NCBI GenBank assembly: GCA_032718475.1
Contig: JAUCBJ010005023.1
Span: 1-32,185, forward strand
Length of the DNA stretch: 32,185 nucleotides
Origin: Nemertoderma westbladi
Taxonomy: Eukaryota; Animalia; Xenacoelomorpha
Reading direction: 5' to 3'
Shown: one piece after another, positions 2,280 through 31,600 of the stretch
Position numbering within the stretch: the first letter of the stretch is position 1
How the letters are laid out: each line of letters begins with the position of its first letter
Notes under the pieces: model-generated
The model's database searches: none
What the model saw: only the letters and a program-made list of their open reading frames with translations
What the model was told of the DNA's origin: nothing
Translations under genes and position numbers: made by a program

Positions 2280-2670
2280 ATTTTCTGCGATATCTCAAGA
2301 ATTATTCGCTTTTTGTTTTGAAGTTGTCTACCCCCACTAAATCGGCCATTGCGGTTCTAATGATCATAATATTAATGCAGTAGGAGAACTCAAAGTTGGC
2401 CATCGCGAAAATTTAGAAATATCATCACTTGTGCCAAATGGTAGGTTCTGTCCATGATGGATTATTTCACTATAAGGTAGCATTTGTAGCTTAACGTAAA
2501 AACATTCTAAAATCCGACGCATTTTGATTAAATTACAGTAGTGTAATATGCCTATTCATATTGGTACACATAAATCCGTAGGTAATTCTATTGGCGCAGT
2601 GGTCAGATGGTTAAGGCGTTGGTTACATTACAGATCTGGAAGGTTCTAGCGGATTCTATGTCCCAGATTT

Positions 2671-2710
2671 GCTATATAAGGGCCGGTTTGCCCTCGGTTA
2701 TCACTCTATT
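2671..2710 (+). promoter_or_regulatory. Putative LTR Pol II core promoter (TATA + Inr-like)
   Basis: CTATATAAGGG is followed ~25 nt later by TCACTC. The same arrangement is at ~19163 and in the solo LTR (GTATAAAAAGGG ~4372). GCCAAT boxes lie upstream in the 3' LTR (19033-19080) and solo LTR (4136-4300). Confidence 0.5.
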
Positions 2711-3874
2711 CACATTATGTTATCCACACACTTACTTTTCTTGTTATATATCTTTAGATTTAATTTGTTTGATAAATCTTTGTAAATTACACAAATATAC
2801 TGTAAACTTTGAATATGATATTTTGTCTCGTCCACCTTTGGGACTGCCAAACATTTGGGAGATGGCTGCCTAAACCGTTAGGCCGTCAGCAACGCAGGGA
2901 AAGATGTCCACAACGCGCTAAGCGCCCACATTAGATTTGCCCGCGCACCCGTTCGAAGCATGCCCCCTTGCTATACAGCGCCCACTTCAGAGGAAGTTAA
3001 GACTTTGTTTGACGCCCTTGCCCGCAGTAAGACCTATAGATCAGGGTAAGCGTGATGCCGTCCTGGGACACCGTAAAATTTAGGATCGAATATTTAGACT
3101 TAGACAGGAGCAAATAGGCAAAATCCCCGGATTAACCTGTATCTCCTACAGGTGTGAACTATTGCTGTTTGTCAGTATGCGCAAGTACACTTTTGGTGCA
3201 GACAGCACAAGTTCCATAATTTGGTGACTTGCAGTACTGACAGCTCTGTACCGGTTCACTTTGTAGTTTATACATTTGATTGCCCCTGTCTGAGCCCGAA
3301 ATATTTGATCAGACAAGGAGCAGCTTTCTGCTACCGGCACTTTGCTTGGCCTAGGGAGGTTTACTAATATCCTACCGCGCCTTGCCACATACTGATAGGT
3401 ATTGCTGCTAACCACCGCGGCAACACAATTCTAGAATCAAATTGTATACCAGATCAGCTAACGTACGGTAGCAATTAACACCTATTTCTTATCTTACAAC
3501 CAGAATCTGGTATTTGTGCCGATCACGGGTGTAGTTACTAACACCGTAATTGCCCGGTTGAGTTGTGGATAGGAAGGAGAGAGCTTTGATGTCATTTTGT
3601 AAGTATAAAGCCCTACAGAGCGTGATTAGCTTATTTTAGTAGCTATTGTTTTTGGTCAGAAATCACCGAAACCTAGTACGACGGCGATACACCAAAATTG
3701 TTTTATTTGTAACACACACACACGTCCTAAAACATATATACCCCCATCGAGACCTGCTAGCTACTAGCTTACTTTAGGTTACTTTCAATAGGATTTATTC
3801 TGCAGTTCTACCATTCTTATTTGTAATTTTAGGAGATATTTAGTATTTAGTTTTACGGCAAGTATTTTAGATGG

Positions 3875-6165
3875 TGATGAATTATTTCACTATAAGGTAG
3901 CATTTGTAGTTTAACTTTAACGTAAAAACTTTCGAAAATCCGACGTATTTTGATTAAGTTACAGTAATGTAATATGCCTATTCATATTTGTACACATAAA
4001 ACCCTTAGGCACTCTCGTGGCGTAGTGGTCAGATGGTTAAGGCGTTGGTTACATTACATAGGTTACGAGTTCGAATCCCAGTCGGGAAATTTGTATTTTG
4101 GGGCCATTTATTTTCGTTTGGTGCTAATTGGTAGGCCAATGAGAAGCGTACAACGTAGCGAATGATGAGCCAGGCCAATCATAGGGCATAAATTATCTTA
4201 TTGCTCAAATGTGAGGCAGTGGAAAATTCTGTTAGGATTCCATGTCCCAGATTAGTGTAAGGGCCGGACTGCGTTGAACGATGAGCTGGGCCAATCATAG
4301 GGCACGAAGCACTTCATTGCTCAATTGTGAAGCTGTGGAAAATTCTGTTTAGTTTCCATGTGCAATTTCTAGTATAAAAAGGGCGGTTTGCCTTCGGTTA
4401 TCACTTCTATCACACTTCTTAGAACCCTTATGTTACACTCTCTTATTCTTGTAAAAATTAGTTAATTCGGTTTCTTGTTGAAACTTCGTTTTGATAAATC
4501 CTTTGTAAAACTGTAAATATACTGCAAATTCCTGAACATGTTTTTCCTTTGGTCCAACTTCGGGACAGCCGAACATCAGGGAGATGGCAGCCTAGACCGT
4601 TAGGCCGTAAGCAACGCAGGGAAGGGATGTCCACAACACGCTAGCGCCCACATTGGATCGACCGCGCACCCCCTTTGCCCCTTCGAAATGCTCAACTTGC
4701 CATGCAGCGCCCGCTTTGTGAGAAAGGTAAGACTTTGTTCGACGCCCTTGCCCGCCGTAAGACCTATAGATCAGGGTAAGCGTGACACCGTACTGGACGC
4801 CACAAATTTAGGATCAAATAATTATATCCAGACAACCCCCCCCCCCCCCCCCCTTTGTCAAGTCCTACGAATCCCTGGGTTAACCTGTACTTCCTACAGG
4901 TGCGAACTATTGCCATTCGTCAGTACGCGAGTACATATTAGGTACGGACAGCATATGTTCCATAATTTAGTGAGTCGTAGCACTGACTCTTTGGTACCGG
5001 TTCGCTTTGTAGAACGTACATTAGTACCCCCCCCCCCCCCCCCCCTGTCTGGAGTTAGCTATTTGATCAGGCAAGGAGCATTTCTGCTACCGGCACACTG
5101 CTTGGCCTAGGGAGGTTTATTAATATCCTATCGCGCCTTGCCACGTACTGATAGGTATTGCTGCTAACTACCGCAGCAACAAAGTTCTAGAATTAAATTA
5201 GTATACCAGATCAGCTAACGTACGGTAGCGATTAACCCCTATTCTTATCTTACAACCAGAATCTGGTATTAGTGCCGATCACGGGTGTAGTTACTAACAC
5301 TGTGGTTGCCCATTGGGTTGTGGATAGGAAGGAGAGAGCTTTGACGTCATTTGTGAGTATAAAGTTCTACAAAACGCGACTAGTTTATTTTAGTAGCTAG
5401 CGCACGGTATCATTTAGTCAGAAAATCACTAAAACCTAGTAAAAGGAATTACACGAAATAGTTTTATTTGTAACACACCCACACACACACGCCCTAAAAC
5501 ATATTGCCCTTAAAGTTCTACTAGCTATAGCGCACTATACATTACTTTAGGTGGAAATTGTCTGTATTTGTAAAATTAGGATCCGATTTAGTTGCGGCAA
5601 AATAAGGAGTATTTCACTTTCGTTATTAAACTGTTGATTTCTATCCAGCAGTTATTGTTACATTTAGGCCTGACCCTTTAGACTGATTTCGTACAGGGGG
5701 ATCAGTTATCGTTACATTAGGTACGACCCCTTTCGACTGATTTTAGGACTGAATCAGTGTTGTTACGCTAGGTCTGTTAACCCACTAGCTCGTATATAAA
5801 CCATATAAATCACACCGCGGCAAGTTACTGTATTTAGGACTGTCAGTGATAGTTAGGATTCGCTGCGCGGGGATTGTTTTCCCGTGAGTTTGGTCTGTTA
5901 CTGTAACTGTACATCTGCCTCACCGGTTAGAGGACAGGTATCCTTCTGTCTAGTACGTAGGCATTAGACCCGCTCACGTACATAGAATAGATACTAGGCT
6001 CTGTTCCTCGCCAGTAGTCGTTTGTGTACTGTATCTGTTTGTTTAGATATCCTGGACTGGGATTTGTTGTCAGATACTGTACGAGCCCGTATACATTACT
6101 AGAGTCTCATAGTAAGATACATCGTTACTAGGATCTGGTAAGCGGTATACTACTGGACCCTTACA
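3875..6165 (+). mobile_element. Solo LTR of a related BEL subfamily inserted in the 5' LTR
   Basis: TGATGAATTATTTCAC...GGACCCTTACA is homologous along its length to the host LTR but diverged. TSD GATGG at 3870-3874 and 6166-6170. The empty site TTTTAGATGGCATGCACC is seen in the 3' LTR (~20065-20082). Confidence 0.93.
4012..4099 (+). ncRNA. tRNA-derived Pol III-like unit in the solo LTR
   Basis: A box TGGCGTAGTGG (4018-4028), B box GTTCGAATCC (4069-4078), T4 at 4096-4099. No intact anticodon arm. Confidence 0.6.
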
Positions 6166-6670
6166 GATGGCATGCACCCTTTTGACTGCTTTGCCCCTGT
6201 CAGCAGTATTGTTACTTTAGGTACTACCCCCTTTTTGACTGCTACCGCTTGTTAGTAGTATTGTTATGCTAGTCTGGTAATCCACTAGCTCGTATATAAA
6301 CCATATAAATCACACCGCGGCAAGTTTACGGTATTTAGGTCCGTTAGCGATAGTTAGGATTCGCTGCGCGGGGATTGTTTTCCTGTGAGTTTGGTCTGTC
6401 ACTGTAGACTGTACATCTGCCTCACCGGTTAGAGGCCGGGTATCCTGTTTTGTCTAGTTCGCCCGGGCATTTGACACGCCCACGTATTAGAATAGACACC
6501 AGGCTCCATTCCTCGTCAGTAGTAGTTCGCGTATTTAGTATCTGTTTATTTAGACACCCTGGACTGGGATTTATTGTCAGATACTGTACGAGCCCGTATA
6601 CACTACTAGATCTTACAGTAAGGTACATCATTACTAGGATCCGGTAGGCGGTATACTACTGGACTTTTCA

Positions 6671-6681
6671 GTAGGAGATAT
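6671..6681 (+). other. Non-canonical primer-binding-site position of element 1
   Basis: GTAGGAGATAT follows the LTR CA directly, with no TGG. The first 10 nt are complementary to TATCTCCTAC at 3140-3149 and 19630-19639. Confidence 0.55.
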
Positions 6682-7494
6682 ATATATAAATATATATTAT
6701 TAGCTATTGTAAAGGTGGGAAGATATTTTACAATTTAAAAATTTAATAAAGTTAGTAATTTGTAGAACGTCCCCTGCCAGTAGGCCTTTAGGGTAGTTTT
6801 ATTCATATTTAGCTAGCTATAAATAGTTAGTTAGTTTGTAATTATTTGTTGTACGCCGTGTGTGTGCGGTGTTACTTTTCGGTACTTGAAAAGGTACATA
6901 GGGTTTAAAGACCAAGTTGTATCGGTACCTAGGAAGAATTTTCGTAGAGTAGAAGTAAAACTCTCACCTTCGACTTTTCAGGACTCAAGGATTCCTTTCT
7001 GGACCGCTTCGAGGGATTAGACCGCTTTTCGCAAAGTTTGGGAGACACAAAATTCGTCCGCGATGCCGAAAACGGAACGACCCACGTCCGGTTTGTATTT
7101 GGGAATTTGCACGACTGGAAAATCAAAGGAGCGTAAGTTTTACGACTCTTGTCGTTCAAACTTAAGAGCACAGTAGTACTCAAAATTTGTGGGTTCCACT
7201 GTCTAATTAGTAGTATTGTTGGTACTTATTTTCCCATTAGACGTTGCTGTTTTGCCTATTGTTTGTACTTGTTGATCTACATTTTGGTAACGTATACCGT
7301 TATCTCACTTATTCGTACAAATTTAGCCGGTAGGCTAGATTATTACATATTTTATTATATACTTTGATTTTATTTGTACCGGTTAGGGTATATATATGGT
7401 ATATATATATACTAAGGTAAGTTTGACATTTTGACATTTCGACATTCTGATACTTTGACATTTTATTACCCGTACTTGACGTATATAATAAGAC

Positions 7495-12099: not shown

Positions 12100-13130
12100 G
12101 ACTCAGCAGAACCCGGTAGTTACGAGACCGCTATGTCAGAACAGGAAAAACGGTCATTAAATATTATGAGAGATACCATTCGCCAGACCGCGAATGGACA
12201 CTACGCAGTAGGCATGTTGTGGCGCAATGGACAACATAAGCTCGTTAACAACTACCCGCTTGCTTTGAGGCGACTCAACTCAATAAGGCAGCGATTGTTG
12301 CATGATGAGACGACCCATATGCAATACAATGCGCAACTTCAGACGTATCTCCAAAAGGGATACGCCATTAGGATGTTAAATCCCAAGGTAACCACAGATC
12401 AGACATATTACCTGCCACATCATTTTGTTTGACACCCGGACAAACCTGGCAAGGTGCGTGTTGTCAACGACTGCGCTGCGCTTTACCAAGGGATGTCTAT
12501 GAACAGCGAACTGATGGACGGGCCGAATATGAATAATTACCTCATGGGAGTCATAATGCATTTTAGACAACGCAAAATGGCTTTCACCTGTGACGTAGAG
12601 GCCATGTTTCACCAGGTTAAGGCTTTGGAGCGGGACAGGGACAGTTTAATGTTTCTTTGGTATCCGGACGGAAATTTAGAACTTCCGCCAGAAACTTACC
12701 AAATGCAGGTAAGAGTTTTCGGAGCAAGGGACAGCCCAACTGCACCATGTATTCCTTAAAGCAGACTGCATCGGACAGACAAGACCAATTTGACCCAGAA
12801 GTAGTTTGGACAGTGGAACGAGACTTCTACGTGGATGATAGCCTCAAGAATTGTGACACTCTGGAGTGCGCTACGACCGTAGCACACCAACTCCAAGATT
12901 GTCTCGCTGAGGGCGGATTTCGACTCACGAAGTTAATTTCCAACGAACCCGAATTAGTGAACTCATTCGACCCGAAGGATCGCAGTGGAGGAGACTTGGA
13001 CTTAGACCAAGAACCTCTACCTATGACCAAGGTATTATGACTTAGGTGGGACCTGAACACCGACAATTTTAGTGTACGTGTAAGGTCCAACGACCAGACT
13101 AGACCTCTCACTAAGAGGACTTGCTTATCG
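12100..13130 (+). pseudogene. pol: BEL/Pao reverse transcriptase (stops and frameshifts)
   Basis: YYLPHHFV*HPDKPGKVRVVNDCAA, LMDGPN, DVEAMFHQV, FGARDSP, FYVDD, GGFRLTK. Confidence 0.95.
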
Positions 13131-13133
13131 ACC

Positions 13134-13850
13134 ATGAGTCGATTGTATGACCCATTGTGTTTCATTAGTCGAGTGATCCTACATGCTAGGATCATACTCC
13201 GCAGCATTTGGCAAGGCGGACTGGAATGGGACGATCCCATCCCAGAAAAGTTAGCTGAGCAATGGAGGGACTGGGAAGCCCAACTGACGTTCTTACAAGA
13301 CTATACCATACCAAGGGTATACTTTCCTTTGCAGACCACCTTTCCTGCCGATTTAGGGCTTCACAGCTTCAATGACGCTAGTAAGGATGGACTGGGGGTT
13401 ACTTTATACCTTAGACGACAAGTGACATCGGACAGCTACGAAGTGTCTCTCGTTACTTCAAGGGCTAGAACAATGCCGTTGAAGTATATGACTGTACCTC
13501 GTGGAGAGCTGCAAGCCGGGACGATATCCACCGATATTGTAAGTTTAGTTCAACGCGAGCTGGAGGCTAACTTGAAGGTCACATATTGGACGGATGCGAT
13601 GTTGGTACTTTGGTACATAAACAACGAAACATTCAAGTTCAAGACTTTCATAGCCAAAAGACGGGCTGAAATATTAGACCGGTCGCTCAAACAAGATTGG
13701 CGTCACTGTCCAGGGAAGCTGAACCCAGCTGACATCGCGTCACGGGGGATGCTACCGATCGACTTTTGTAAACCGGACAATAAATCCTTTTGGTTTAGAG
13801 GACCCGATTTCCTACAACGACCATCAGACGAATGGCCACCGTTATTAGAT
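13134..13850 (+). pseudogene. pol: BEL/Pao connection and RNase H domain
   Basis: LYDPL, WDDPIP, FNDASKDGLG, VPRGELQA, YWTDAMLVL, WRHCPGKLNPADIASRG, WFRGPDFL. Confidence 0.95.
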
Positions 13851-13969
13851 GCGACAACTAATACCATACCGGAGGGTGCCGAGATAAAAATCGACACAGT
13901 TGTCAAATCTAAAGTGAAAGCCAAGGTCAAGAGGAAACAAGGACGGACGAAATCTGATGACCTGGACGC

Positions 13970-14390
13970 TAGACCCGACATTACGCCAGACGTCTCACCA
14001 GACTCTTGACCAGACGCTCGTATGAATCTTTCACCGGAGTTCCGCGGGAGATTTCACCAGAAGTTTCGCCGGATTGTTCACCAGATGACTCGCCAGATTA
14101 TTCACCAGAAGCGACACCAGATTGTTCTCTGGATTGTCCGCCAGATTGTTTTATGGAACTCTCGACAGATTGTCTACCGGATGTTTCACCAGACTTTCCA
14201 CCAGACATCTCGACAGACTGTCCATTAGACTTTAGACCAGACATTCTGATAGAAGCTACGCCAGACTTTCTTTGGGACTGATGACAGAACATTTCGCCAG
14301 AAGTTCCGCGCTATGTCTCACCAGACGTCTTACCAGACTATTCACCGGACACCTCACCAGACTGTCTACTAGACTTTCCACTAGACGACT
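13970..14390 (+). repeat. Degenerate 12-bp tandem repeat encoding (P-D/E-x-S/P)n between RNase H and integrase
   Basis: CCAGAC/CCGGAT/CCAGAA recur with 12-nt spacing. Translation: SPEVSPDCSPDDSPDYSPEATPDCSLDCPPDC... Confidence 0.85.
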
Positions 14391-14799: not shown

Positions 14800-16340
14800 A
14801 TAGTAAACCTAACTAGATCATGGACTGAAGCGTGCCGCAAGCTAGCATGGCTCAAACGTTTGAGACAATATGCCAGAGGCAAACGCGACTTTCCTAGAAG
14901 ACTTACCTTAGAGGAAGTTGGTCTTTATGAACTTGATATTATTAGACATTATCAATTGCGATATTTTGCACGAGAGTTCACAGCGATCAATCAGGGTAAA
15001 CAGATCAAGTCTTCACCGATTTTGAGTTGGAGTCCGATAATCTATAGGGGCTTACTTTGTCACAAGTCCAGACTCCAGAACATTGACTTTGCACTTGACT
15101 TTAGGTATCCTATCATCATACCGCAACACCATGAGTTACAGCGCGCTATGATACTGGACGCACATGTACGACTCAAACACGTAGGTAGACATCACTGTCT
15201 ATCACACTCATGATCGAGATTTGTACTGATTAGGCCTAGTAAGGCACTGAATTCGGTAACAATGAACTGTATGATTTGTAAGAAGGTGCACGCGAGGATA
15301 GGACACCAAGAGATGAGTGAACTACCACTAGCGAGATTACAGGCTTTTAGACCCCCTTTCACTGAGACAGGGATAGACTGTTTTGGACCCATAATCGCGA
15401 AACGCAGAAGGGTACAGGTAAAACGTTGTGGATTGATCTTCACTTGCATGGCCAGCAGAGCTATCCATATAGAGCGTGTGACAGACTTGACCACCAACGC
15501 CTTTATCCTAGCCTTACGGCGATTTATCTCTAGACATGGATTGTTCAAATCCATTTATTGCGACCAAGGGACTAACTTTGTGGGTGCACGGAATGAAATT
15601 ACCAGAGCTTTAAGGAAGTTGGACCAAAACCAGATTTCCGAGGAATTACGTCCTCACCGTATTGTTTGGAGCTTTAACACTCCTGACAGTCCGTGGAGAG
15701 GCGGCGTTTGGGAAAGGCTGATTGGGTCAATAAAGACGGATATGGCAAAAGTAATACCGACGCAACACATACTAACAGACGACCAACTGACGACGTTGTT
15801 AATAGAAATCGAAGCGGTTTTGAATACTCGACCGATCGCTTTGATCCCAGACAATAACGACTCACAGTTTGCCTTGACACTCAGCGCACCTGCTTATGCA
15901 GGCGCTGACGACATTGTTGCCCACTTCGGTACCTGTCGATAGCGATGGATACGGCAACAAAGCTTGGAAAATCACTCAGTTGTTAGCCAACAAATTCTGG
16001 GAAATATGGCAGAAGCACTATTTGCCCTCTATTTCAACCAGAACCTCTTGGTACCCGATGTTTGAGACGAGGTGACCACGTTTTATTGGCTGAAACCAAT
16101 CTGAAAAGACGGTTTTGGCTGACTGGAGTCATTTTGATCAAGCACCCTACATCTGGTATAGTAAGGACAGTTACTGTACGGACTATTGGCAGACGTACCG
16201 TAGGCCTGTACAACGTCTCGTGCTCCTTGAGGAGACTAGAAACGAGACAGGAGACTACAAATCTCCACCCAATCTTAGTAAATAGAGATGTGGGAGCCTT
16301 GATGGCCGCCACATCGACTTACCGTATTTTAGTAATTTAG
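14800..16340 (+). pseudogene. pol: BEL/Pao integrase (HHCC zinc finger, DDE core, C-terminal DUF5641-like region)
   Basis: HVRLKHVG...CMICKK, GIDCFGP, IYCDQGTNFVGA, PWRGGVWERLIGSIK, IEAVLNTRP, FWEIWQKHYLP, GDHVLL...WLTGVI...GIVRTVTVRT. Confidence 0.95.
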
Positions 16341-16914
16341 TATTTTGTATTACTGTATGTGCATTTGTATTCCTCTTCACTGTAGATAGAGTCAGCGGTG
16401 GAATTCCATTGTCTTTATATGTGAACATGGAGGGTAGTACCCTTATGTATCACATAGGAGCGGGATTGTGTGTACAGTAGGAATGGAATTCCACTTGGAA
16501 CCCACAAGTGAGACAATTTTTCAAAAATTATTAGACAAATCCATTTAGTTGGATTTAAATTTAAGAAAAATGATTCTCCAGTGAATGCGAATTCTAGATT
16601 ACAGCTAGATAAAAATTAAAATTGGGGAGGACAAGAGCGGATGGAAGGCTTGTGAGCCTACCGATAAATTTTTTTTGGAAAAGAAAATCGGCCTTGTTCT
16701 ACATAATCGTGTCTACTATTATTTTGGACCAAATTAATTCTCGACTGCACTATTTTCTTTGGGAGGTAGTTTGGGAAAATAAGGAGCCAGTGCGAAATCA
16801 CGCGAAACCCGAAGTCTTTAGGCAAATGGGTAGGGGTTTTAGACCGAAGTTGAGCCAAAGGCTGACAAAACTCTAAGTCTCCTCACATCTAACCTCTGTT
16901 TGTGCTTCCTCTAG

Positions 16915-17289
16915 TAGAAACACTATATACAGGGATTCACGCAGGAATAGGAGCACCAGGCGCCGTTCAACCTATATGGGGCCAAAAACTTTAACATGTT
17001 TGGAGTGGAGAGTATGGCTAGGAGTACAGCCAAGCTCGCTAAATCCAAGGCGGACCCGAATGTTACGCGACAACGATTGGTCGCTTATAACAAAAGAGCG
17101 GATGAGTTACGCGTGGAATTCAATGCGCTATACCCCTACGATGCATTATGCGACGCCAGTGACATTTGCGAGGATCCAGACATGGAGATACGCCGATTAT
17201 ATCATACGCTGCAATATTTGATGGCGAGCGAACCCTTGCCTGCAGCCAGGGCCGGATTAACCAGTAGGCTAATAAGGCTGAAGCCTTAG
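16915..17289 (+). CDS. Unknown accessory ORF A downstream of pol (probably a spliced exon, one frameshift)
   Basis: 97-aa ORF at 16996-17289 extends to a strong 3' splice site (CTAAC 16889-16893, pyrimidine tract, AG 16913-16914) if one A is removed from the A5 run at 16984-16988. No recognisable domain. Confidence 0.45.
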
Positions 17290-17422
17290 GGCCATTGAAA
17301 AAAGCGGTCACACTTTCCTACAAAAATGTTGAATTGTAATGAGTTGAATGTAATGAGAGTTAATAGGAAGCCTATAAAATAGTCTGTAAAAGGGGCACTT
17401 TACATCATTAGTTTCTTAGTAT

Positions 17423-18274
17423 ATGGACCCGTCCGTGTTCAGGCTAGCCGGGAACCATTTCATTAAACTGAGTAGATACACCGTTGGTTATGTACTATGT
17501 ATTATTTGTATATTCCATACATGCCAGCCTAGCCAAGGCCTCTACAAAATCTCAGTTTGCTACCAGCCTACTACAATAGATCAGCTGATTGGGTAACCCC
17601 CCTGTGACTCTAAAGATTGTTGGCCAACCGGCCATCTCTTTATTTGTTGCATTAGGGACGAATTAGGGACGAATTCAATGGAATGCATCTTTATAGATGC
17701 GCTCGAGGAGCGGATCCAGAGACAAAGGACGTGTTCTCCATTTATAAACTGTTCTATAAATGTGGAGGATGTATGTGTGCGCAAGACAACTCGATTCCTA
17801 TGCGCTTGAACCCGGAGAACCCCGAGCCGATATTAGCGCAATGTTCATACCACCAAAGTCTGCGTTACCAAGAAGGCGGATACCCTTTGACGAATCCGTA
17901 CCATTCGTTTAAGATGAGTGGACCGAATGCGGGCGAGATTGTCATTTATGAACCCAAATTAGTCGAACCAGACTTCTATAGTATGATAGCGGGATGAGTC
18001 TAATAAGTCGACACAAGAGAAACGGGAAGCTTTGAGCCTCTATAGGGCATACAAAGCGCACGAGAAAGGCGAGATCGAGGAGTTCGGCGGAAGGCTTGCG
18101 ATCCTACCATTTTATTGGATATCCTATGATCAAACCGAACCCAAGGAGATGACGGTCGTTTCATTTCCCGGTATTCTAGAACCGCAGGCAACTCGACGTA
18201 GGAGCCCAAGCCCAGCTAGACCGAAGTCACCGATTAATCGTATAAAAGGGCAAAGGCAAAGGACACAAGCGTAG
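17423..18274 (+). pseudogene. Unknown Cys-rich accessory ORF B (~280 codons reconstructed)
   Basis: ATG 17423 follows TATAAAA (17373-17379). One TAA (17594), an 11-bp tandem duplication ATTAGGGACGA (17651-17672) and one frameshift near 17990 join three ORF pieces. Confidence 0.55.
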
Positions 18275-18740
18275 AGAGCGAGATGATTGAGAAAGGAAGG
18301 CTTGCGAGCCTACCGTTAGCGATTAGCGCTCAGGAGAAGATATCCAGACCAGTAAGTAGGACGAACTATTGAGCTCGTCAGGAGAACACTTTAAGACTTA
18401 TTTGGAAGTTATTAGCATATTATGTTTGTTTACATTTGAACTGATTTAATTTGGAAAGTTTATTATGTATATTTGTAATATATGAGAGATTATTGAGATG
18501 TTTGAAATTATTTGTTCTAATTTGTTTAATTTGTTCATTTTGATAACCGAAAGCCATCTTTTTTTTGTATTTTATGCACTAAAGTTAATTGGTAAATTTG
18601 TATTTTGTATGTATGATAGAATGTATTTACGCTGTACCTGCAATGATAAGTATGTAATAATTAGGTAGTGATTATTTTATATTTTAGGCCCCACCATTAG
18701 ACCTAAGAGATATTTTGTAAATAGTTTATATTTCGATTGG

Positions 18741-18775
18741 TGAAAACAGTCTTACTTACTGTTTTCATGGAGCGG
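18741..18775 (+). other. Hairpin plus short atypical polypurine tract of element 1
   Basis: TGAAAACAGT-CTTACTT-ACTGTTTTCA, then TGGAGCGG immediately before the 3' LTR TG. Confidence 0.65.
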
Positions 18776-20569
18776 TGATGGATTATTTCACTATATGGTA
18801 GCATTTGTAGCTTAACGTAAAAACTTTCTAAAATCCGACGCATTTTGATTAAATTACAGTAGTGTAATATGCCTATTCATATTGGTACACATAAATCCGT
18901 AGGTAATTCTATTGGCGCAGTGGTCAGATGGTTAAGGCGTTGGTTACATTACAGATAGGTTACGAGTTCGAATCCCAGTCGGGAAATTTGCATTTTTGGG
19001 CAATTTATTTTCACTTTGATCTAATTAGATAAGCCAATGAGGTGCATACAACGTATGGAACGATGAGTTGGGCCAATCATAGGGCATAGCACATCTTATT
19101 GCTCCAATGTGAGGCCATGGAATGCTCTGGAAGGTTCTAGCGGATTCTATGTCCCAGATTTGCTATATAAGGGCCGGTTTGCCCTCGGTTATCACTCTAT
19201 TCACATTATGTTATCCGTACACTTACTTTTCTTGTTATATCTTTAGATTTAATTTGTTTGATAAATCTTTGTAAATTACACAAATATACTGTAAACTTTG
19301 AACATGTATATTTTGTCTCGTCCACCTTTGGGACAGCCAAACATATGGGAGATGGCTGCCTAAACCGTTAGGCCGTCAGCAACGCAGGGAAAGATGTCCA
19401 CAACACGCTAAGCGCCCACATTAGATTTGCCCACACGCCCGTTCGAAGCATGCCCCCTTGCCATACAGCGCCCACTTCAGAGGAAGGTAAGACTTTGTTT
19501 GACGCCCTTGCCCGCATTAAGACCTACAGATCAGGGTAAGCGTGACGCCGTCCTGGGACGCCGTAAAATTTAGGATCGAATATTTAGACTTAGACAGGAG
19601 CAAACAAGCAAAATCCCCGGATTAACCTGTATCTCCTACAGGTGTGAACTATTGCTGTTCATCAGTACGCGCAAGTACACTTTAGGTGCAGACAGCACAA
19701 GTTCCATAATTTGGTGATTTGCAGTACTGACAGCTCTGTACCGGTTCACTTTGTAGTTTATACATTTGCCCGCCCCTGTCTGAGCCCGAAATATTTGATC
19801 AGGCAAGAAGCTTATTTTAGTAGCTAGCGCGCGGTATTGTTTTTGGTCAGAAATCACCGAAACCTAGTACGACGGCGATACACCGAAAATGTTTTATTTG
19901 TAACACACACACACACACACACGTTATAAAACATATATACCCCCTTCGAGACCTGCTAGCTACTAGCTTACTTTAGGTTACTTTCAATAGGATTTATTCT
20001 GCAGTTCTACCATTCGTATTTGTAATTTTACGAGATATTTAGTATTTAGTTTTACGGCAAGTATTTTAGATGGCATGCACCCTTTTGACTGCTTTGCCCC
20101 TGTCAGCAGTATTGTTACTTTAGGTACTACCCCCTTTTTGACTGCTACCGCTTGTTAGTAGTATTGTTACGCTAGTCTGTTAATCCACTAGCTCGTATAT
20201 AAACCATATAAATCACACCGCGGCAAGTTTACGGTATTTAGGTCCATTAGCGATAGTTAGGATTCGCTGCGCGGGAATTGTTTTCCCGTGAGTTTGGTCT
20301 GTCACCGTAGACTATCTGCCTCACCGGTTAGAGGCCGGGCATCCTGTTTGTCTAGTTAGCCCCGGGCATTTGACTCGCCCACGTATTAGAATAGACGCCA
20401 GGCTCCGTTCCTCGCCAGTAGTAGTTCGCGTATTTAGTATCTGTTTATTTAGACACCCTGGACTGGGATTTGTTGTCAGATACTGTACGAGCCCGTATAC
20501 ACTACTAGATCTTACAGTAAGGTACATCGTTACTAGGATCCGGTAGGCGGTATACTACTGGACTTTTCA
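18776..20569 (+). repeat. 3' LTR of element 1 (1794 bp)
   Basis: TGATGG...CTTTTCA followed by TSD GTCCA; matches the 5' LTR. Confidence 0.96.
18906..18997 (+). ncRNA. tRNA-derived Pol III-like unit in the 3' LTR U3
   Basis: A box TGGCGCAGTGG (18913-18923), B box GTTCGAATCC (18966-18975), T5 at 18993-18997. The 5' LTR copy (~2590-2635) has lost the B box by deletion. Confidence 0.6.
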
Positions 20570-22540: not shown

Positions 22541-22656
22541 AGCAAGTAAAAGCAAGCAAACAGTCGGCCGAAGCCGGAGGCGACCCGAAGGCTCCTCTTT
22601 CGATAGCTGCTACCCGAGGGTAGGGGTGGGCGCTACTCCTATCCCAAGATTTGCTC
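22541..22656 (-). mobile_element. 5'-truncated SINE copy (RTE-type 3' tail)
   Basis: 12-bp TSD ACAGACAGAAAA (22529-22540, 22657-22668). The reverse strand reads GAGCAAATCTTGGGATAGGAGTAGCGCCC...GCTATCGAAAGAGGAGCCTTCGGGTCGCC...(TTGC)-like tail, shared with 23050-23098 and resembling RTE LINE 3' ends. Confidence 0.75.
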
Positions 22657-22923
22657 ACAGACAGAAAAGGCGATGCCAAATTTGTATAATGACATCACAA
22701 ATGAACTCACCGACTACAAAAACATATAATATAGGGAATTTTTTAGGCATCGATTATGTTTTCTATTGATTAATAGTAAAACAGTAACACGAACAGACAG
22801 CAATTTCTCAAGAAGTAAGACAGATCTTGCTAAAACGTTTTCATACCCCCCCCCCTCCCCCCCCCTTGATAATTTTAGATTTTTTTTTATTGTTTATTTG
22901 GCTCATGTAATATAGGAAGCGTC

Positions 22924-23199
22924 GGTGGGGTAGCTCAGTTGGTTGAGCGCCGGGCCTGTAATATAGTGGTTGTAGGTTCAGCCCCGCCAGGGTCCACTCA
23001 GCCTTTCATCCACTGGGGTCGACAAAATGAGTACCAGTTAAATAACTGGGAGCAAATCTTGGGATAGGAGTAGCGCCCAGCCCTACCCTCGGGTAGCAGA
23101 TAGGAGTAGCGCCCACCCTTACCTTCGGGTAGCAAATAGGAGTAGCGCCCACCCCTACCTTCGGGTAGCAGATAGGAGTAGCGCCCACCCCTACCCTCA
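22924..23199 (+). mobile_element. tRNA-headed SINE, 5' part (split by element 2; remainder at 31464-31493)
   Basis: A box TAGCTCAGTTGG (22931-22942) and degenerate B box GGTTCAGCCC (~22975). Central ACTCAGCCTTTCATCC...GGGGTCGACAAAATGAGTACC block resembles the one in RTE-partnered SINEs such as Sauria SINE. Confidence 0.75.
23063..23199 (+). repeat. 36-bp tandem repeat derived from the SINE tail
   Basis: GATAGGAGTAGCGCCCACCCCTACCCTCGGGTAGCA x3, plus a fourth unit cut by element 2 and continued at 31464-31493. Confidence 0.9.
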
Positions 23200-23820
23200 T
23201 GTGACGGGATCGAAGATCCCAACCGGGTTGATGTTTCACGCGTCACCGTTCTACTGTCAGGGATGGTGCTAGTAGCCTGGCCGAGGCCGTTATAGGAAAA
23301 CAATGAGAGTCCGGTGTTGTCTCTTTGATAATAGCACAATAATGTTATGGTAGAACCACAGATTTAATGATACCGGTATGTGTCTGATTGATCAGTACGG
23401 TAAACAACTGATACCGGTCTGCACTAACTGAGTAATTAACTAAACTGAATGACACACCGGTAACAGGAGATAATATATGATTGATATAGCAATATTGCTT
23501 CACTCCTACGTTACCTTGGCCTGCTACCTAGTGGATGCTCTCCTTTGCCCTTATTGGCTAATAACCTACTTCTCACCCTTTCACTCTCTGGGAGTGTTTC
23601 CCCTCTGTTACTAGCCTCTGCTAGCTGTGTCCCCTCCGAGGTGGTTTGACCTCTAACCTTCCTTTGTGTGTGGCTTCGGGGTTTGTGTTGCCCCCCCCCC
23701 CCCAAAATGGTGGTTGTGATACGAGATTAATATTGCTAATCTCGTATCTCCAACATATTGCCGAAAATGCCACTGTCCCATTTATTGGTGGGTAATGAGG
23801 CGGAATTGAATGCGCTTACA
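23200..23820 (-). repeat. 3' LTR of element 2 (621 bp)
   Basis: Near-identical to 30850-31463; preceded on the sense strand by the PPT GGGGGGGGTAG. Confidence 0.95.
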
Positions 23821-23860
23821 CTACCCCCCCCATGCTATCTTCCCGGTGAGAAGATAGCAT
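23821..23860 (-). other. Polypurine tract and adjacent hairpin of element 2
   Basis: Sense strand reads ATGCTATCTTC-TCACCGG-GAAGATAGCAT-GGGGGGGGTAG|TGTAAG. Confidence 0.8.
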
Positions 23861-24240
23861 CAACTACAAGTGCGCTTCAATTCCGCTGGAACCCGATCTA
23901 CTATCGGGTGTGGGGAGGAGTTCTTTTCTCGGAGCCGGCTTTCCAGGCCGCTCCCTCTGGGTATGATATTGCTACCCCTTCTTGGTGCAACCGCAACCTA
24001 TGTTGCACCAAGACATCTGACGTCTCTGTTCGAGACAATTGTGGACTCTTCACACAATTTTAAAAACTTCCTCTCTCTGAACTCACTCTAACTTCACTCT
24101 GAACTCACTCTAACTCCACTCTGAACTCACTCTAACTCCACTCTGCTCACTCCCCACATTTGAATTACACCCGTCTACATTCTCACGCGCCAACACCTCC
24201 TCTCCATACTTCCCTCGTACTGCTCTCATACTCCTCTCGG

Positions 24241-24422
24241 GACTTACCCCAGTCCATCGGCTTGTGGAAAACAAGCCTCATGAGCTGGCCCCATCGCCAC
24301 TGCTTCGCAATGTCCCGTGCCCGCTCCGTGCTCCCCCCAGAACTTGCCCCAGTCCATCGGCTTGTGGCAGACAAGGCCCATGAGCTGGCCCATCCCCACT
24401 GCTTCACAATGTCCTGTGTCTC
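24241..24422. repeat. Two diverged ~100-bp direct repeats in the element 2 3' region
   Basis: CCCCAGTCCATCGGCTTGTGG...CATGAGCTGGCCC...CCACTGCTTC.CAATGTCC at ~24247 and ~24347. Confidence 0.85.
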
Positions 24423-24748
24423 TACCACTCCCTAAAGTGCCAATTTTTCTTATGCTACCCCTCTCTGTGCTATCATTCTATCTACCTTGCTACTTACTTC
24501 TTACTTACTACTTACTATTAACTGCTACTACCTACATAACTGCTACTACTCAATACCTACACTACCACTACCTCTCTCACTCTCTCTCCTACGTGGCGCT
24601 TTCGGTGCCCACTAACCCCTCTACTCTTTCTATGTGGCGCTTTCGGTGCCCACAACCCCTCTGCTACTACTTCTCATGGTATATCTACATACCACACTCC
24701 CTCTCTTTCTACGTGGCGCTTTCGGTGCCCACAACCTCTAACTCTCTC

Positions 24749-25147
24749 GGTACTATGTACCCTGCTACTCCGGTACTATGTACCCTGCTACTACTCGTGG
24801 TATGTCAATATACCACACTCCCTATCTTCTGCCTACTTCTAACTCTAACGGTACTATGTACCCTCCTACTCCCGTGGTATGTTTATATACCACACTCCCT
24901 AATTTCTGCCTACTTCTAACTCTAACGGTACTATGTACCCTCCTACTCCCGTGGTATGTTTATATACCACACTCCCTAATTTCTGCCTACTTCTAACTCT
25001 AACGGTACTATGTACCCTCCTACTCCCGTGGTATGTTTATATACCACACTCCCTATACCTGCCTACTTCTAACTCTAACGGTACTATGTACCCTCCTACT
25101 CCCGTGGTATGTTTATATACCACATCCCTTTTCTGCCTACTTCTAAC
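24749..25147. repeat. 77-bp tandem array (4 near-identical plus partial units)
   Basis: GGTACTATGTACCC recurs at 24850, 24927, 25004 and 25080, with partial units at 24749 and 24772. Confidence 0.9.
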
Positions 25148-25433
25148 TTCTCTACTCTTACTTCTTACTAACTTCTACTAACTTTCTTACTTCTTACTAA
25201 CTTCTACTAACTTTCTAACTACTACTTACTATCTAACTATCTACTACTATTACTTTCTAACTTTCTACTTATTTTATTATTTTCTTATTATTTTATTTTA
25301 TTTATATTTCTGTGTGGGAAGGGCGTCTCGCCCTCATTCCCACCCCCCTCAGTCCAACATATTGGACGACTAAACTCTCAAGGTGCCCTCTTCTTCCAGG
25401 AGGCACTCTCCCACTGCCCCCCTGTAGGTCCTC

Positions 25434-26620
25434 TTATTCTTCGTCCACACTCTCCTCTGCCAATTCCAACTCTCTAGGAATTGATTCTCCCTCCTCCACC
25501 ACCCTAAAATCGGGTCTTTCGGCCGCCTTCTTGATTTCCTCATGGTCCCCTGGCAGCAAAATGCCACACTTCATCTTGTCGTCACCTGGCGGTAGAATGA
25601 AAAGAAATCGAAAGAATAGATAGAACAGAATGGATAATACTAATCCTATCCCTTTCCACCCTGTCTTCTTATTTGACCTCCCCCTTTTCGGTATGCCTCT
25701 CAACCGGACCGGCGTCTCCTCCGGACACTGCTCCGGACATCTCGCCGTCCACTCTTCTCCATCCTCATACCGATACTTTCCGGGAACATCCTTGTTCCAT
25801 CCCATCGTCTCTAAGTCTTCCGCGTCGAATCCATTCTCCTCCGCCCACTCTCTTGCTGTTACTTCCCCTCCTAACTTATCTACCGACGGTATTTCTCTGG
25901 AACTATCCTCTATCCTTTCACCACGCTCCACTATGCGTGGTTCCAGATCCATACCCAACTCCTGGTATCCTTCCCCGGGCCGCTTCTCACATGGGACCTC
26001 CCCATCGCCCGTCTCTGGTTTCTTCTCTGCGTCCTTAACGGTGCCTGATAGCATGCACCCTGATGTCTCCGACACCCTGGATGGAATCTTGGTTTTAATT
26101 GGGCCGCTAAGCGTCCATCCGCACGGCGTGAGAATCGCCGTCGGATCCCCTGCTTATTCTCTCCGAATATGGTCCTTACTCTCTCGTGGGCCGTCGGACA
26201 ATCCATTCCGACTATGATGGATACCTTCGAGACGTCCACTTTCGGTATTGAGAAATCGATATCATCCAGGAACCGGTATTGCTCGACCTCGATCTTAGTT
26301 GGTCTCCTGGCATTTATATTAATCGATTCTATTATCTGTATGGGGTCGATGGTCGCCCCATAATCACATCCCGGTGCTATTGCTGATATCTCGCACCGTC
26401 CCGTCCTCATCTCCAGGACCTCATCCTTACTCGAGATAGTAGTTACCGCCATCCTACTCGGCCTCGTCTGTAACCCTATCTCCTCGGCCACCCAATTCTC
26501 CACCAGCGTGAAGGCTGCTCCGCTGTCGACCAGCATCAATGTTGTGACTGATCGGCCGCCCTCTTCCTGTTATCCTCACTGGTACTACCCCGAGTAGTAC
26601 TTTCCTCTTTCTTCTTGCTC
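25434..26620 (-). pseudogene. BEL/Pao aspartic protease plus unknown C-terminal extension with hydrophobic segment
   Basis: VLLGVVPVRI, LVDSGAAFTLV, IIVGMDCP and (frameshift) AILTPCGWTLSGP, then ~210 acidic residues containing KKTGWK-GIGLVLSILFYLFFRFLFIL. Confidence 0.8.
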
Positions 26621-29600
26621 CTGTCGTGCTCGTAGCCATTGTTTGGCCTCCAGTCTCATCGTCTCCTATCGGTGTTTCTCTACACTCTCCGGATCTGTGT
26701 CCTTCTACCACGCATCGATGACATAGTCCGTTTGCATCCTGTAGGCTACACGATCTTGTTTAGGCAACGCTTGCCAATGCTTACAACTCATGGTCTTATG
26801 GGTTCCATCCCTATGCAATTGACATTCGAATCCTGGATTGTAGCGTTCCCTGTATAGTCCTTCACGTATCGCGCGTAGATTTATATCTACCGGTTTAGTG
26901 TTTTGGTTATTTGGACTCGGCCTACTGGGTGTGTTGGGATTATATTTGTTCGTGGTGTTATTTTGTTTCTGTCCCTGCCACGGTGTGGCCCTACTCCCAG
27001 CTAACTGTGGGCTTGTAGCCCCCTGTGTGGCCCTGTGGTAGCGACTGTCTCACTCTCGGGAATGGATCTGCTGGATTATGTTCGGGTTTAGGCCTGTTGT
27101 ATTCGGTCTTCGGCGCCTTCCCCAAACTATCCTCACTGTAGACTGGGTCTGTAATCAACTCTGCTTCGTAGTTGAGGAAGTTCGACATTTCCTCTAGGCC
27201 CGGTTCCGCACCTTTCTTCTCCCGGGTGGAGAAGGCGATCTTCCTCCACTTGTTCCGTAGCCAGATCGGCAGTGCCTGCGCTATCGTGGTGATGTTATTT
27301 GATGCGTTGAGTTCGTATGGCGCGTCTAGCGTCTTCAGCACGATTAACGCCTTATCAACCTTATTCGCAAAGGTCTTTATGCTAACAGGGTTATCCTGTA
27401 GGCCACCCGATGTTATTCCCCTCAGGGTCTGCCGGATGATCTTGGCTGGGTGTCCGTATTCCCTGTCTAGGGCCCGCCATGCAGTCGTGAAGCCACCCTC
27501 GATGCCCTGATACTGCCTCACGATGTCGTACGCTGGGCCTCCTGTATGTATACCTGTAAATATTTTAGGCACTCCGCCTGCGTCAGGTTCTTAGTTAATA
27601 TTTCGTTGCTGTACATGCGTCGGAATTGCAGGTATTCTTCTGGTCTGCTTCCGTCGAATTTAAATGGCTCAACTGGTGGTAGCTCTTCTGATCCAGGGGG
27701 TTCGATGTTCTTATTCCCGGTTGAGTGTATTGTCGATACTGTAATGGGGGAATGTCACCCTGTCCCCCCCCCCCACCGGTGTTATGTTTGGTACTGGGGT
27801 TGATGTTAATATATTGGGACCCACACATCTATCAGCAATAACCCCCCCCCCCCTCCCCTGGGTATATGTTATGTCCCTGCATATTATAGTCATACCGGTG
27901 TGCTGGTACCGGTATAGGCCTATCCACTTCTTGCCTACCTGCCGGTATGTACGCCGCGACTTCTGGATCTAATCCCGTTGTTCGCGCTACCCTATCGCCT
28001 ACACTATCTCTTCCAGCATGGCCTATAGTATGTGCAGTAAGGCCTACAGTATGTCCTGCAGTCTGCCTGTGCCCTTCCGGACCGAAGTTTAATCTTCTCG
28101 AATATTCCAAGAAGTCCTCCCTGCGACTACCGTACTCTCGATCGGCAGCTATATCCCGTCGGGAAATTTCTCTTCGATCCCCTCTCCTGTTCTCGTCCTT
28201 GTATCGGTACGTCCTGTACCCTTCTCCTGGTGTGTGGTGCGTCTCTCCGGGGCGACGGCAATCTCCCGGAGTTCGACCCCACTGACTCCCTAATCCATCT
28301 CTACTCCCATCTCTACTACCGACGGTTCACTGTCCGTCCTTGCTCTCTGGTTGCTCATAGCAACGCTTCTTCTATTCTCTCCACGCTTTTGTGATCTCTC
28401 TTCGACCTCCCGGTTAAACTCCACTGTTCTTCTTCCCTCTTCCGACTGACGTCTTCTCGCTCGCCCGCTCCCGGCGTCAACATTTCTCTCTCTGCCCGGG
28501 TGGATGCTCCTGGGGGTACTCGCAATCCCCCTACTATTCTCCGTCGTCGGGTGCCGCGGTTCATCTAACTCGCCCAGCGCATTATCCGCCAAAACCTGTG
28601 GGACATTCTCTGCCCCCCCCCCCCCTCTCGCCACTAATCTCTCGCGGTTGGGTGCCCGTAGCCCCCCCCCCCCCCCCCCACTCGCCACTTCACGACCTCT
28701 TACTTCGCTTCTACGCCCCTCTTGTGGGACATTCTCTGCCCCCCCCCCCTCTCGCCACTAATCTCCCATGGTGGGGCGCCCGTAGCCCCCCCCCCCACCC
28801 CCCACTTCTTACTTCACTACCTCTCACTTCGCTTCTACGCCTTTCTCTAGTCGACGCACTATCTCTACTGCGGCTGGGTCTATTCACCCCCGCCTCTCCC
28901 TCTACCACTACATGGCCTTGCAGGCTCCGTCGGCTTGACTCACCCCCGCTGCTCCCTGCCTAACTCCGTGGCCTTGCAGGCTCCCGTTGGCCGGACCACC
29001 TATGTCTCCTATATTAGTATTAACAACAGTACTATACTATATACAATACTATATACAATACTATAACAGTATTAATAGCACCGTTATCAATATTATTATT
29101 TTCTATATTATATAAATCATTTGAATTATTTTGTACATTTAAATTTAAATTAGGATTATTTTGTTTGTTTGTTTGTTTTGTTACAGTTTTGTTTGATTGA
29201 ATTAAAATTATTATTTAGATTATTTTGTATATTTGAATTTAAATTATTTGAATTATTTATATTAGAATTATTGTTTGGATTATTTGTATTTAAATTAGAA
29301 TTATTTTTTGGATTATTTGTATTTAAATTAATATTACTGGGTAAAATATTATTTCCTGCAATGAAAGTTTGATTAGGGTTGTCCACTACGGTACTATTAA
29401 TATTAATTCCCTCTAACGTATTATTATTACCCCCCCCCCCCCCACCCCCTGCCTGTACGGTTACACGAGTTCTGGGTCAGTCGTCCGGAGCCTGTAAGTG
29501 GGGTATTAACGAACATTTCCATTACTTCGGGCTCCTCGTAAATATTACCCGAGCCAGGCTCACTCTCGGATAGTCCCAACTGCGCCAATTCTAATCGGCG

Positions 29601-30775: not shown

Positions 30776-30838
30776 CTTTACTTTACTTTTACTGTCTCTA
30801 GCTGTCTGGTGTCTGGCAGTCACAGTTATAGCAGTTGG

Positions 30839-30849
30839 CAGTTGTTTAC
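30839..30849 (-). other. Non-canonical primer-binding-site position of element 2
   Basis: Sense GTAAACAACTG directly after the 5' LTR, with no TGG. It is the exact reverse complement of the LTR segment at 31048-31058 (also 23400-23410). Confidence 0.65.
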
Positions 30850-31463
30850 TGTTTACGGGATTGAAGATCCCGACCGGGTTGATGTTTCATGCGTCACCGT
30901 TCTACTGTCAGGGATGGTGCTAGTAGCCTGGCCAAGGCCATTATAGGAAAACAATGAGAGTCCGGTGTTGTCTCTTTGCTAATAGCACAATAATGTTATG
31001 GTAGAACCACAGATATAATGACACCGGTATGTGTCTGATTGATGATGGTAAACAACTGATACCGGTCTGCACTAACTGAGTAATTAACTAAACTGAATCA
31101 CAAACCGGTAACAGGAGATAATATATGATTGATATAGCAATATTGCTTCGATTGCTACCTAGTCGATGCTCTCCTTTGCCCTTATTGGCTAATAACCTAC
31201 TTCTCACCCTTTCACTCTCTGGGAGTGTTTCCCCTCTGTTACTAGCCTCTGCTAGCTGTGTCCCCTCCGAGGTGGTTTAACCTCTAACCTTCCTTTGTGT
31301 GTGGCTTCGGGGCTTGTGTTGCCCCCCCCCCCCCCCCCAAAAAAAAAAAATGTTGGTTGTGATACGAGATTAATATTGCTAATCTCGTATCTCCAACATA
31401 TTGCCGAAAATGCCACTGTCCCATTTATTGGTGGGTAATGAGGCGGAATTGAATCCGCTTACA
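30850..31463 (-). repeat. 5' LTR of element 2 (~614 bp)
   Basis: Matches 23200-23820. The inner boundary is uncertain by about 1 nt (sense ...CCCGTAAACA versus ...CCCGTCACA). Confidence 0.93.
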
Positions 31464-31493
31464 CCTCAGGTAGCAGATAGGAGCAGCGCCCAC

Positions 31494-31600
31494 TAGGGAT
31501 GCGACAGAGCTAAAATTTCATCCGGAGCCGGAGCCCGCAGGATTCTCCGGGTTACAATATGAGCTCCGGCCGGAGACTGACCCGGAGCCGGAGGTTTGGT
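31494..31600. mobile_element. Possible end of a hAT-like non-autonomous DNA transposon truncating the SINE
   Basis: Abrupt start TAGGGATGC followed by repeated CCGGAG/GGAGCC subterminal-like motifs. The other end was not found. Confidence 0.35.

Follow-up and report, generated by a model that had tools for sequence, protein, structure and literature searches.

A putative LTR-derived self-primer in a non-autonomous BEL/Pao retrotransposon of Nemertoderma westbladi

In the retrotransposon Tf1, the RNA's initial 11 bases pair with the primer site, and a cut by RNase H follows base 11, as described in the accessible part of PMC7175516. Beyond Tf1, for which self-priming has been shown, it has been predicted for Tj1, sushi, Tcn1 and the TAR lineage of copia elements, according to the accessible parts of PMC4600332, PMC6317226 and PMC5341516. 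The BEL/Pao elements, which the accessible text of PMC3118150 gives as the second most abundant LTR class in animal genomes, are listed as tRNA-primed, and their replication is poorly understood (PMC8742986). The ICTV description of the Belpaoviridae specifies priming by a host tRNA at an 18-nt site for tRNA-Arg or tRNA-Gly (PMC8742986).

We analysed a stretch of 32,185 nucleotides from Nemertoderma westbladi (contig JAUCBJ010005023.1 of assembly GCA_032718475.1), called here the window, which carries two LTR retrotransposons, element 1 on the plus strand and element 2 on the minus strand. An earlier note on this DNA had proposed self-priming for element 2. Its sequence, the predicted folds and the analogy with Tf1 make it likely that element 2 uses a stretch of its own LTR, not a tRNA, to start reverse transcription.

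Boundaries and protein content of element 2

Element 2 (31463-23200, minus strand) is an LTR retrotransposon delimited by an LTR pair and a 5-bp TSD, TGAGG, located at 31464..31468 with its partner at 23195-23199. The 5' LTR (30850..31463, 614 nt) and the 3' LTR (23200..23820, 621 nt), both on the minus strand and both of the TG...CA type, differ at 20 of 601 aligned positions, and a polypurine tract (23821..23831, minus strand) precedes the 3' LTR. The final 5 nt differ between the two LTRs (30850-30856 versus 23200-23205), and those of the 5' LTR repeat the start of the primer site. The element is embedded in a 36-bp tandem array (23064-23199 and 31464-31495) and adjoins a 57-nt inverted repeat (22604-22660 and 23046-23102). 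A 45-nt near-palindrome is present in the U3 of both LTRs (23711-23755 and 31354-31398), and the region where pol is missing, 23830-25430, is purine-rich with 77-bp and 100-bp tandem repeats.

Three coding pieces, all broken and all on the minus strand, were found inside element 2: a Gag capsid piece with DUF1759 (26991..27590, E 5.5e-5, below the curated cut-off), a weak zinc-knuckle piece (26454..26759) and an aspartic protease piece with a DSG motif (25931..26569, E 9e-6). The gag matched BEL polyproteins at E 7e-13 and was itself matched by 42 of the 78 BEL loci that were kept, from 506 confirmed stretches, in a metagenome scan with six BEL polyproteins. No match to RT, RNase H or integrase was obtained in element 2, including the region 3' of the protease piece; it therefore requires a partner and, having neither RT nor RNase H, has no place in a tree of these domains. 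Element 2 is thus a non-autonomous BEL/Pao retrotransposon with gag and protease only. The BEL/Pao affinity claimed in the earlier note is borne out by the gag and protease domains and by the matches to BEL polyproteins: the TG...CA LTRs, the TSD, the purine tract and the BEL-type gag and protease of this superfamily are present, and its RT, RNase H/peptidase A17 and integrase are absent. Membership in the Tf1/sushi chromoviruses was rejected, since no Ty3/gypsy-type proteins were found and the domains are BEL-type.

The primer-site region and its complement in the LTR

The 11 nt that directly follow the 5' LTR, GTAAACAACTG (30839..30849, minus strand), occupy the position of the primer site. 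As had been claimed, TGG is missing from them, and they are the exact complement of CAGTTGTTTAC, which is found in both LTRs, at 31048..31058 in the 5' LTR, 198 nt before the LTR end, and at 23400..23410 in the 3' LTR (both minus strand). The copy in the 5' LTR is the predicted 3' part of a self-primer. Pairing is perfect and begins with the very first base beyond the LTR. In the whole window, the 11-mer and its complement occur at these three places only. Element 2 thus shows at least 10 nt of complementarity to its own LTR within 0-5 nt of the LTR end. TGG was absent within 5 nt of the LTR end in both window elements, neither of which carried an 18-nt site for the 3' end of tRNA-Arg or tRNA-Gly, and ARAGORN and Rfam gave no matches within the window. 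A pairing dependent on splicing was rejected for element 2, the best junction giving 10 nt versus 11 nt for the contiguous match.

We compared this match with resampled LTRs. With the match required to begin at the first post-LTR base and the LTR resampled 5000 times per order, Markov models of orders 1 to 4 gave an 11-nt match at frequencies of 0.0002, 0/5000, 0.0018 and 0.028, respectively, and 256 of 63082 window positions (0.004) gave such a match to their upstream 614 nt. A chance match, aided by the repeated CAGTT/AACTG units of which three lie in each of the two regions, would draw on the order-4 value. However, element 1 repeats the layout with other letters, as do 12 of 15 families (see below), and we give chance a negligible probability; the pairing of element 2 is real and belongs to a wide pattern.

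The element-2 family has many copies, as DNA contigs from three runs (two samples) showed. Variant rows in the aligned contigs numbered 36 in 30862-31040 and none in 31041-31075, a count biased in this conserved block by the failure of divergent contigs to align and by the dropping of rows near piece ends. Among the primer-site variants listed, G30841A and T30847C would leave G-U pairs in place, and one more distant contig in X3 carries C30839T and G30844T, which would break two pairs when judged against the LTR site of the window, the LTR site of that contig not being covered. No compensatory double change was seen in the element-2 family, in contigs that did not link both sites on one molecule.

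The same layout in element 1 and in related families

Element 1 has its 5' LTR at 2455-6670 and its 3' LTR at 18776-20569 (plus strand), a TSD, GTCCA, recognised by eye, and RT, RNase H/peptidase A17 and integrase of the BEL/Pao type; the Pao peptidase A17/RNase H region (13041..14009, plus strand, E 5e-38) is a piece of a broken pol. The primer-site position after its 5' LTR (6671..6682, plus strand) has no TGG, and its complement, of 10 Watson-Crick pairs or 12 pairs with one G-U, is located at 3138..3149 in the 5' LTR and at 19628..19639 in the 3' LTR (both plus strand), 930 nt before the LTR end. Swapping the primer sites and LTRs between elements 1 and 2 gave matches of only 4 and 6 nt. 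The gag and protease pieces of the two elements do not align with each other, so that element 1 is an independent case; judging by its sequence, it is probably not the partner of element 2. Pairing dependent on splicing was rejected for element 1 as well (7 nt at the junction versus 10 nt contiguous).

Several other features of element 1 were observed. Its 5' LTR, 4.2 kb long, combines two related LTR variants, the second starting at 3875, with an internal duplication, and the second variant carries a different site (4886-4897) whose matching primer site is absent from the window. The element 1 site lies within a 7-bp hairpin and is followed by AG, with strong donor-like motifs before it (19487-19641 and 3046-3151), and it may be the 3' end of an LTR intron, in which case splicing would remove the primer, the reverse of the junction type described below. 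A tRNA-like stretch with A- and B-box-like motifs is located near the start of the LTR (4010-4092, 18905-18985 and, in part, 2592-2635); it is present in both LTR variants, was not called by ARAGORN or Rfam, and shows no complementarity to the primer site. A tRNA-like primer of its own is reported for Cer7 of C. elegans. The roughly 2.7 kb after the integrase (16070-18770) contain broken extra ORFs (16951-17289 and 17656-17997), with no Pfam match, which could possibly be env-like or a captured gene.

In scoring the metagenome loci, we took contiguous matches as well as GT-AG junction matches into account, defined the LTR ends from both copies, and kept a single row for each family. Of the 15 families with a set LTR end, 12 showed cognate pairing of 10-15 nt that begins 0-4 nt downstream of the LTR; in 10 of these 12 it exists only across a GT-AG junction in the LTR, and in two it is contiguous, as in element 2. 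Only 1 of 272 non-cognate combinations of site and LTR reached 10 nt. For L027 and L077 the LTR ends, and for L071 the 5' copy (the 3' copy scores 7), had been picked after the match was seen; a stricter splice-site test, made without these post hoc choices, was positive for 10 of 13 rows (11 families and the two window elements) and for 0 of 156 non-cognate combinations. The earlier note had suggested a self-priming lineage and a test of whether primer site and LTR segment change together, and such co-variation is what we found: the pairing is lineage-wide, and its letters change from family to family.

Pairing with the LTR was lacking in three of the 15 families, L063, L013 and L072. The first of these has a TGG site, the only one among the 15, while L072:8957 and L013:92 have neither a recognised TGG site nor LTR pairing; their LTR end may have been wrongly set, or their priming may differ. 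A TGG alone can mislead, because the TGG that follows the LTR of L027 (L027:82-84) overlaps a 14-nt splice-junction pairing and is not a tRNA site. When the 65 loci with at least 400 nt upstream were scanned blind, matches were found at 40 of 2471 upstream sites, in 38 loci, compared with 7 of 2696 control sites in coding regions; many of the loci that gave no match end early at a contig edge, and the matches in L028, L047, L063 and L078 are probably not at LTR ends. Two scans of viral contigs revealed no relatives, and a second protein search at near lengths gave no matches.

A quick tree of 71 of 79 rows, used for intermixing only and with element 1 on a long unsure branch, showed junction rows and contiguous rows mixed with each other. 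One supported clade, made up of L024, L040, L049 and L054, is contiguous throughout and has four different site pairs, and the contiguous L001 is placed among junction families, which would fit the loss of an intron.

In L044, a 117-nt GT-AG intron is exactly missing from the upstream LTR copy and present in the downstream copy, the arrangement that would be expected of an RNA. This bears on self-priming from the 3' R copy of the site, or from a second genomic RNA in trans. The site does sit in both LTRs of element 2, and R is undefined there since the poly(A) signal was not located: the ATTAAA pointed out in the earlier note is present at 23368-23363, but it was rejected as evidence for a poly(A) signal, as it is found in the 3' LTR only (the 5' LTR reads ATTATA); aligned contigs vary at two of its six positions. 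Against such priming, it is the upstream copy of L044 that is spliced and the downstream copy that is not. Moreover, the junction families would keep their intron only if the 3' copy stays unspliced, so that this copy presumably cannot pair. We consider priming from the 3' copy or in trans very unlikely.

Folding, transcript start and proposed priming

Folding of the element 2 leader predicted a second helix next to the 11-bp helix, with an upstream arm (31059..31078, minus strand) pairing with a downstream arm (30823..30838, minus strand) through 2+4+6 bp. The folding energy was -28.5 kcal/mol with the second helix versus -12.8 kcal/mol for the 11-mer alone. Pair probabilities were 0.9-1.0 for 10 of the 11 pairs when the leader started at 31125, 31094 or 31077, and 0.89-0.93 when it started at 31058, while the 11-bp helix folded at only ~0.4 in a leader from 31057. 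A TATA-like motif, TATATTAT (31118..31125, minus strand), is a candidate promoter; it is located 31 nt before the A (31094) of the first TCAGTT, is the sole motif of its kind in element 2, and fits a start near 31094.

The second helix was then compared across families by pairing the 14 nt that precede the main helix with the 12 nt following the primer site in 27 rows (19 junction rows, 6 contiguous rows and the two window elements), leaving out family duplicates, the truncated L032 and four doubtful matches. The mean energy was -6.0 kcal/mol versus -2.5 to -3.0 kcal/mol for windows 7-70 nt further upstream (Fisher p 4e-7, the rows not being independent). The helix was significant singly in 8 of the 27 rows; element 2, with p 0.24 on the short window, was not among them, and in element 1 the second helix is absent. 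Between the sequence 3' of the predicted cut and the LTR end, pairing did not exceed the non-cognate level (-4.2 versus -3.9). Position -13 from the predicted primer end, in the loop between both helices, is A in 21 of the 27 rows and never T.

Because the second helix lies 5' of the 11-mer, these predictions indicate that the RNA of element 2 likely starts upstream of the 11-mer and hence of 31058. The earlier note had suggested that the 11-mer could be the very 5' end of the RNA; this is not supported, given the second helix that directly precedes it both in element 2 and in the comparison of families, and the TATA-like motif that fits 31094. A start at about 31058, with the first 11 nt as the primer as in Tf1, is a special case of the explanation that we prefer and shares about a quarter of its confidence. 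The initiator-like TCAGTT named in the earlier note is indeed present at 31059, although it is one of three in the 5' LTR (31096, 31079 and 31059). The main helix is 11 or 12 long in 18 of the 27 rows, which were preselected at 10 or more, and it folds well from 31058; in L002, a TATA motif precedes the splice donor by 34-36 nt, and no common TATA spacing was found among the families. The co-varying second helix, however, needs upstream bases in the RNA and, with the TATA-like motif fitting 31094, makes a start at 31058 doubtful.

The pairing starts with GT in 12 of the 14 positive rows and with AG and AT in the other two; these 12 of 14 give the unbiased count for the terminal AC of the LTR stretch, which is constant across the 27 rows by construction, GT having been required. 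Another possible primer is half of a tRNA that has been cleaved in its anticodon loop, a mode used by Ty5, copia and fungal Helenus; the terminal NAC could then stand for a valine anticodon. Anticodon-loop priming is described in the accessible part of PMC10886601, and the stretch of element 2 ends in UU-UAC. Matches across splice junctions are not explained by such a primer. If NAC were an anticodon, the base preceding it would be the invariant U33. This base is U in only 14 of the 27 rows and the letters upstream vary freely, and on this pattern across families we hold a tRNA half to be extremely unlikely.

The pairing might instead form a structural or regulatory leader stem, acting in site masking, in a packaging or translation switch or in a splicing check, while an outside RNA primes. 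The stem exceeds 11 bp and lies inside the leader, in element 1 the site is remote from a probable start, some 465 nt beyond the TATA/initiator-like pair 19164/19192, and the cut and the primer of the self-priming explanation are deduced rather than observed. On the other hand, an outside primer needs a conserved site, yet the primer site differs in every family; this varied site always matches its own LTR, and the pairing begins 0-4 nt from the LTR end and finishes on the same AC. A stem with an outside primer therefore appears unlikely to us. Self-priming is favoured by the pairing beginning 0-4 nt after the LTR end, which is where priming must start.

In the self-priming mechanism proposed here, transcription would start some 20-40 nt before the 11-mer, near 31094, and the 11-nt LTR stretch of the element 2 RNA would pair with the primer site, as predicted by the fold and its second helix. 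A cut 3' of the terminal AC, analogous to that made by the RNase H of Tf1, would free a 3'-OH on a 5' fragment of ~30-50 nt, and minus-strand DNA would begin at, or at most 5 nt from, the CA end of the LTR; an autonomous partner would provide both RNase H and RT in trans. For most relatives, the LTR intron would have to be spliced out before the paired stretch exists, elements 1 and 2 representing the intron-free form. We judge it quite probable that the RNA folds with a 5' part lying on the primer site, that this part is cut off 3' of the terminal AC, and that an RT acting in trans extends it. We place somewhat better than even confidence in the wider proposal that a large, aquatic-type branch of BEL/Pao exchanged tRNA priming for a self-primer, as a third independent origin after gypsy and copia, that in most families the spliceosome joins this primer from two LTR exons so that only spliced RNA is copied, and that element 2 carries the intron-free form, kept even by a passenger without RT.

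No report of self-priming in BEL/Pao was found in the literature searched, the scope of which left out most subscription papers and Repbase notes. The words primer, PBS and tRNA do not occur in the main text of the BEL/Pao survey PMC3118150, in its accessible part, nor do PBS and tRNA in the Sinbad paper (PMC554778), and BEL self-priming is absent from the accessible parts of PMC13524379, PMC3601003, PMC8220671, PMC9094657 and PMC10886601. What appears to be new here, at the level of sequence, is a signature of self-priming in a superfamily not known for it, and a splice-built form of this signature in relatives. If our explanation is true, the description of BEL/Pao as tRNA-primed would be wrong for much of the superfamily, each of the three LTR superfamilies would have given rise to self-priming, and the making of a reverse-transcription primer would include splicing. 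Such elements would presumably be beyond the reach of silencing by tRNA fragments, and they would be missed by the tRNA-site filters of annotation tools.

Comparison with the Belpaoviridae showed that element 2 shares their TG...CA LTRs, purine tract, DUF1759 gag, zinc knuckle and protease, and that the likeness extends in element 1 to peptidase A17, RT, RNase H and integrase, whereas their tRNA site (PMC8742986) is missing from both and element 2 also lacks RT, RNase H and integrase. The Helenus TRIMs resemble element 1 only, in having a tRNA-like LTR sequence that is not complementary to the primer site; they are short, non-coding and tRNA-primed, while element 1 is a coding BEL element (accessible part of PMC10886601). 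In the TAR lineage of plant Ty1/copia elements (Houba, Osr-1), self-priming was predicted from sequence alone, by at least 10 nt of complementarity 0-5 nt after the LTR, which element 2 fits, but these are copia elements of plants and no splice-junction form is described for them in the accessible part of PMC6317226. The closest likeness in layout is to Tf1/Tf2 of Schizosaccharomyces pombe, Tj1 of S. japonicus, the Tf1/sushi group and Tcn1, in which, as in element 2, about 11 nt of the element's own LTR pair with an adjoining site and there is no tRNA site (accessible parts of PMC7175516, PMC4600332 and PMC5341516). The Tf1 group belongs to another superfamily, Ty3/gypsy, and the cut and the priming that have been shown for Tf1 are those that we propose, by analogy, for element 2.
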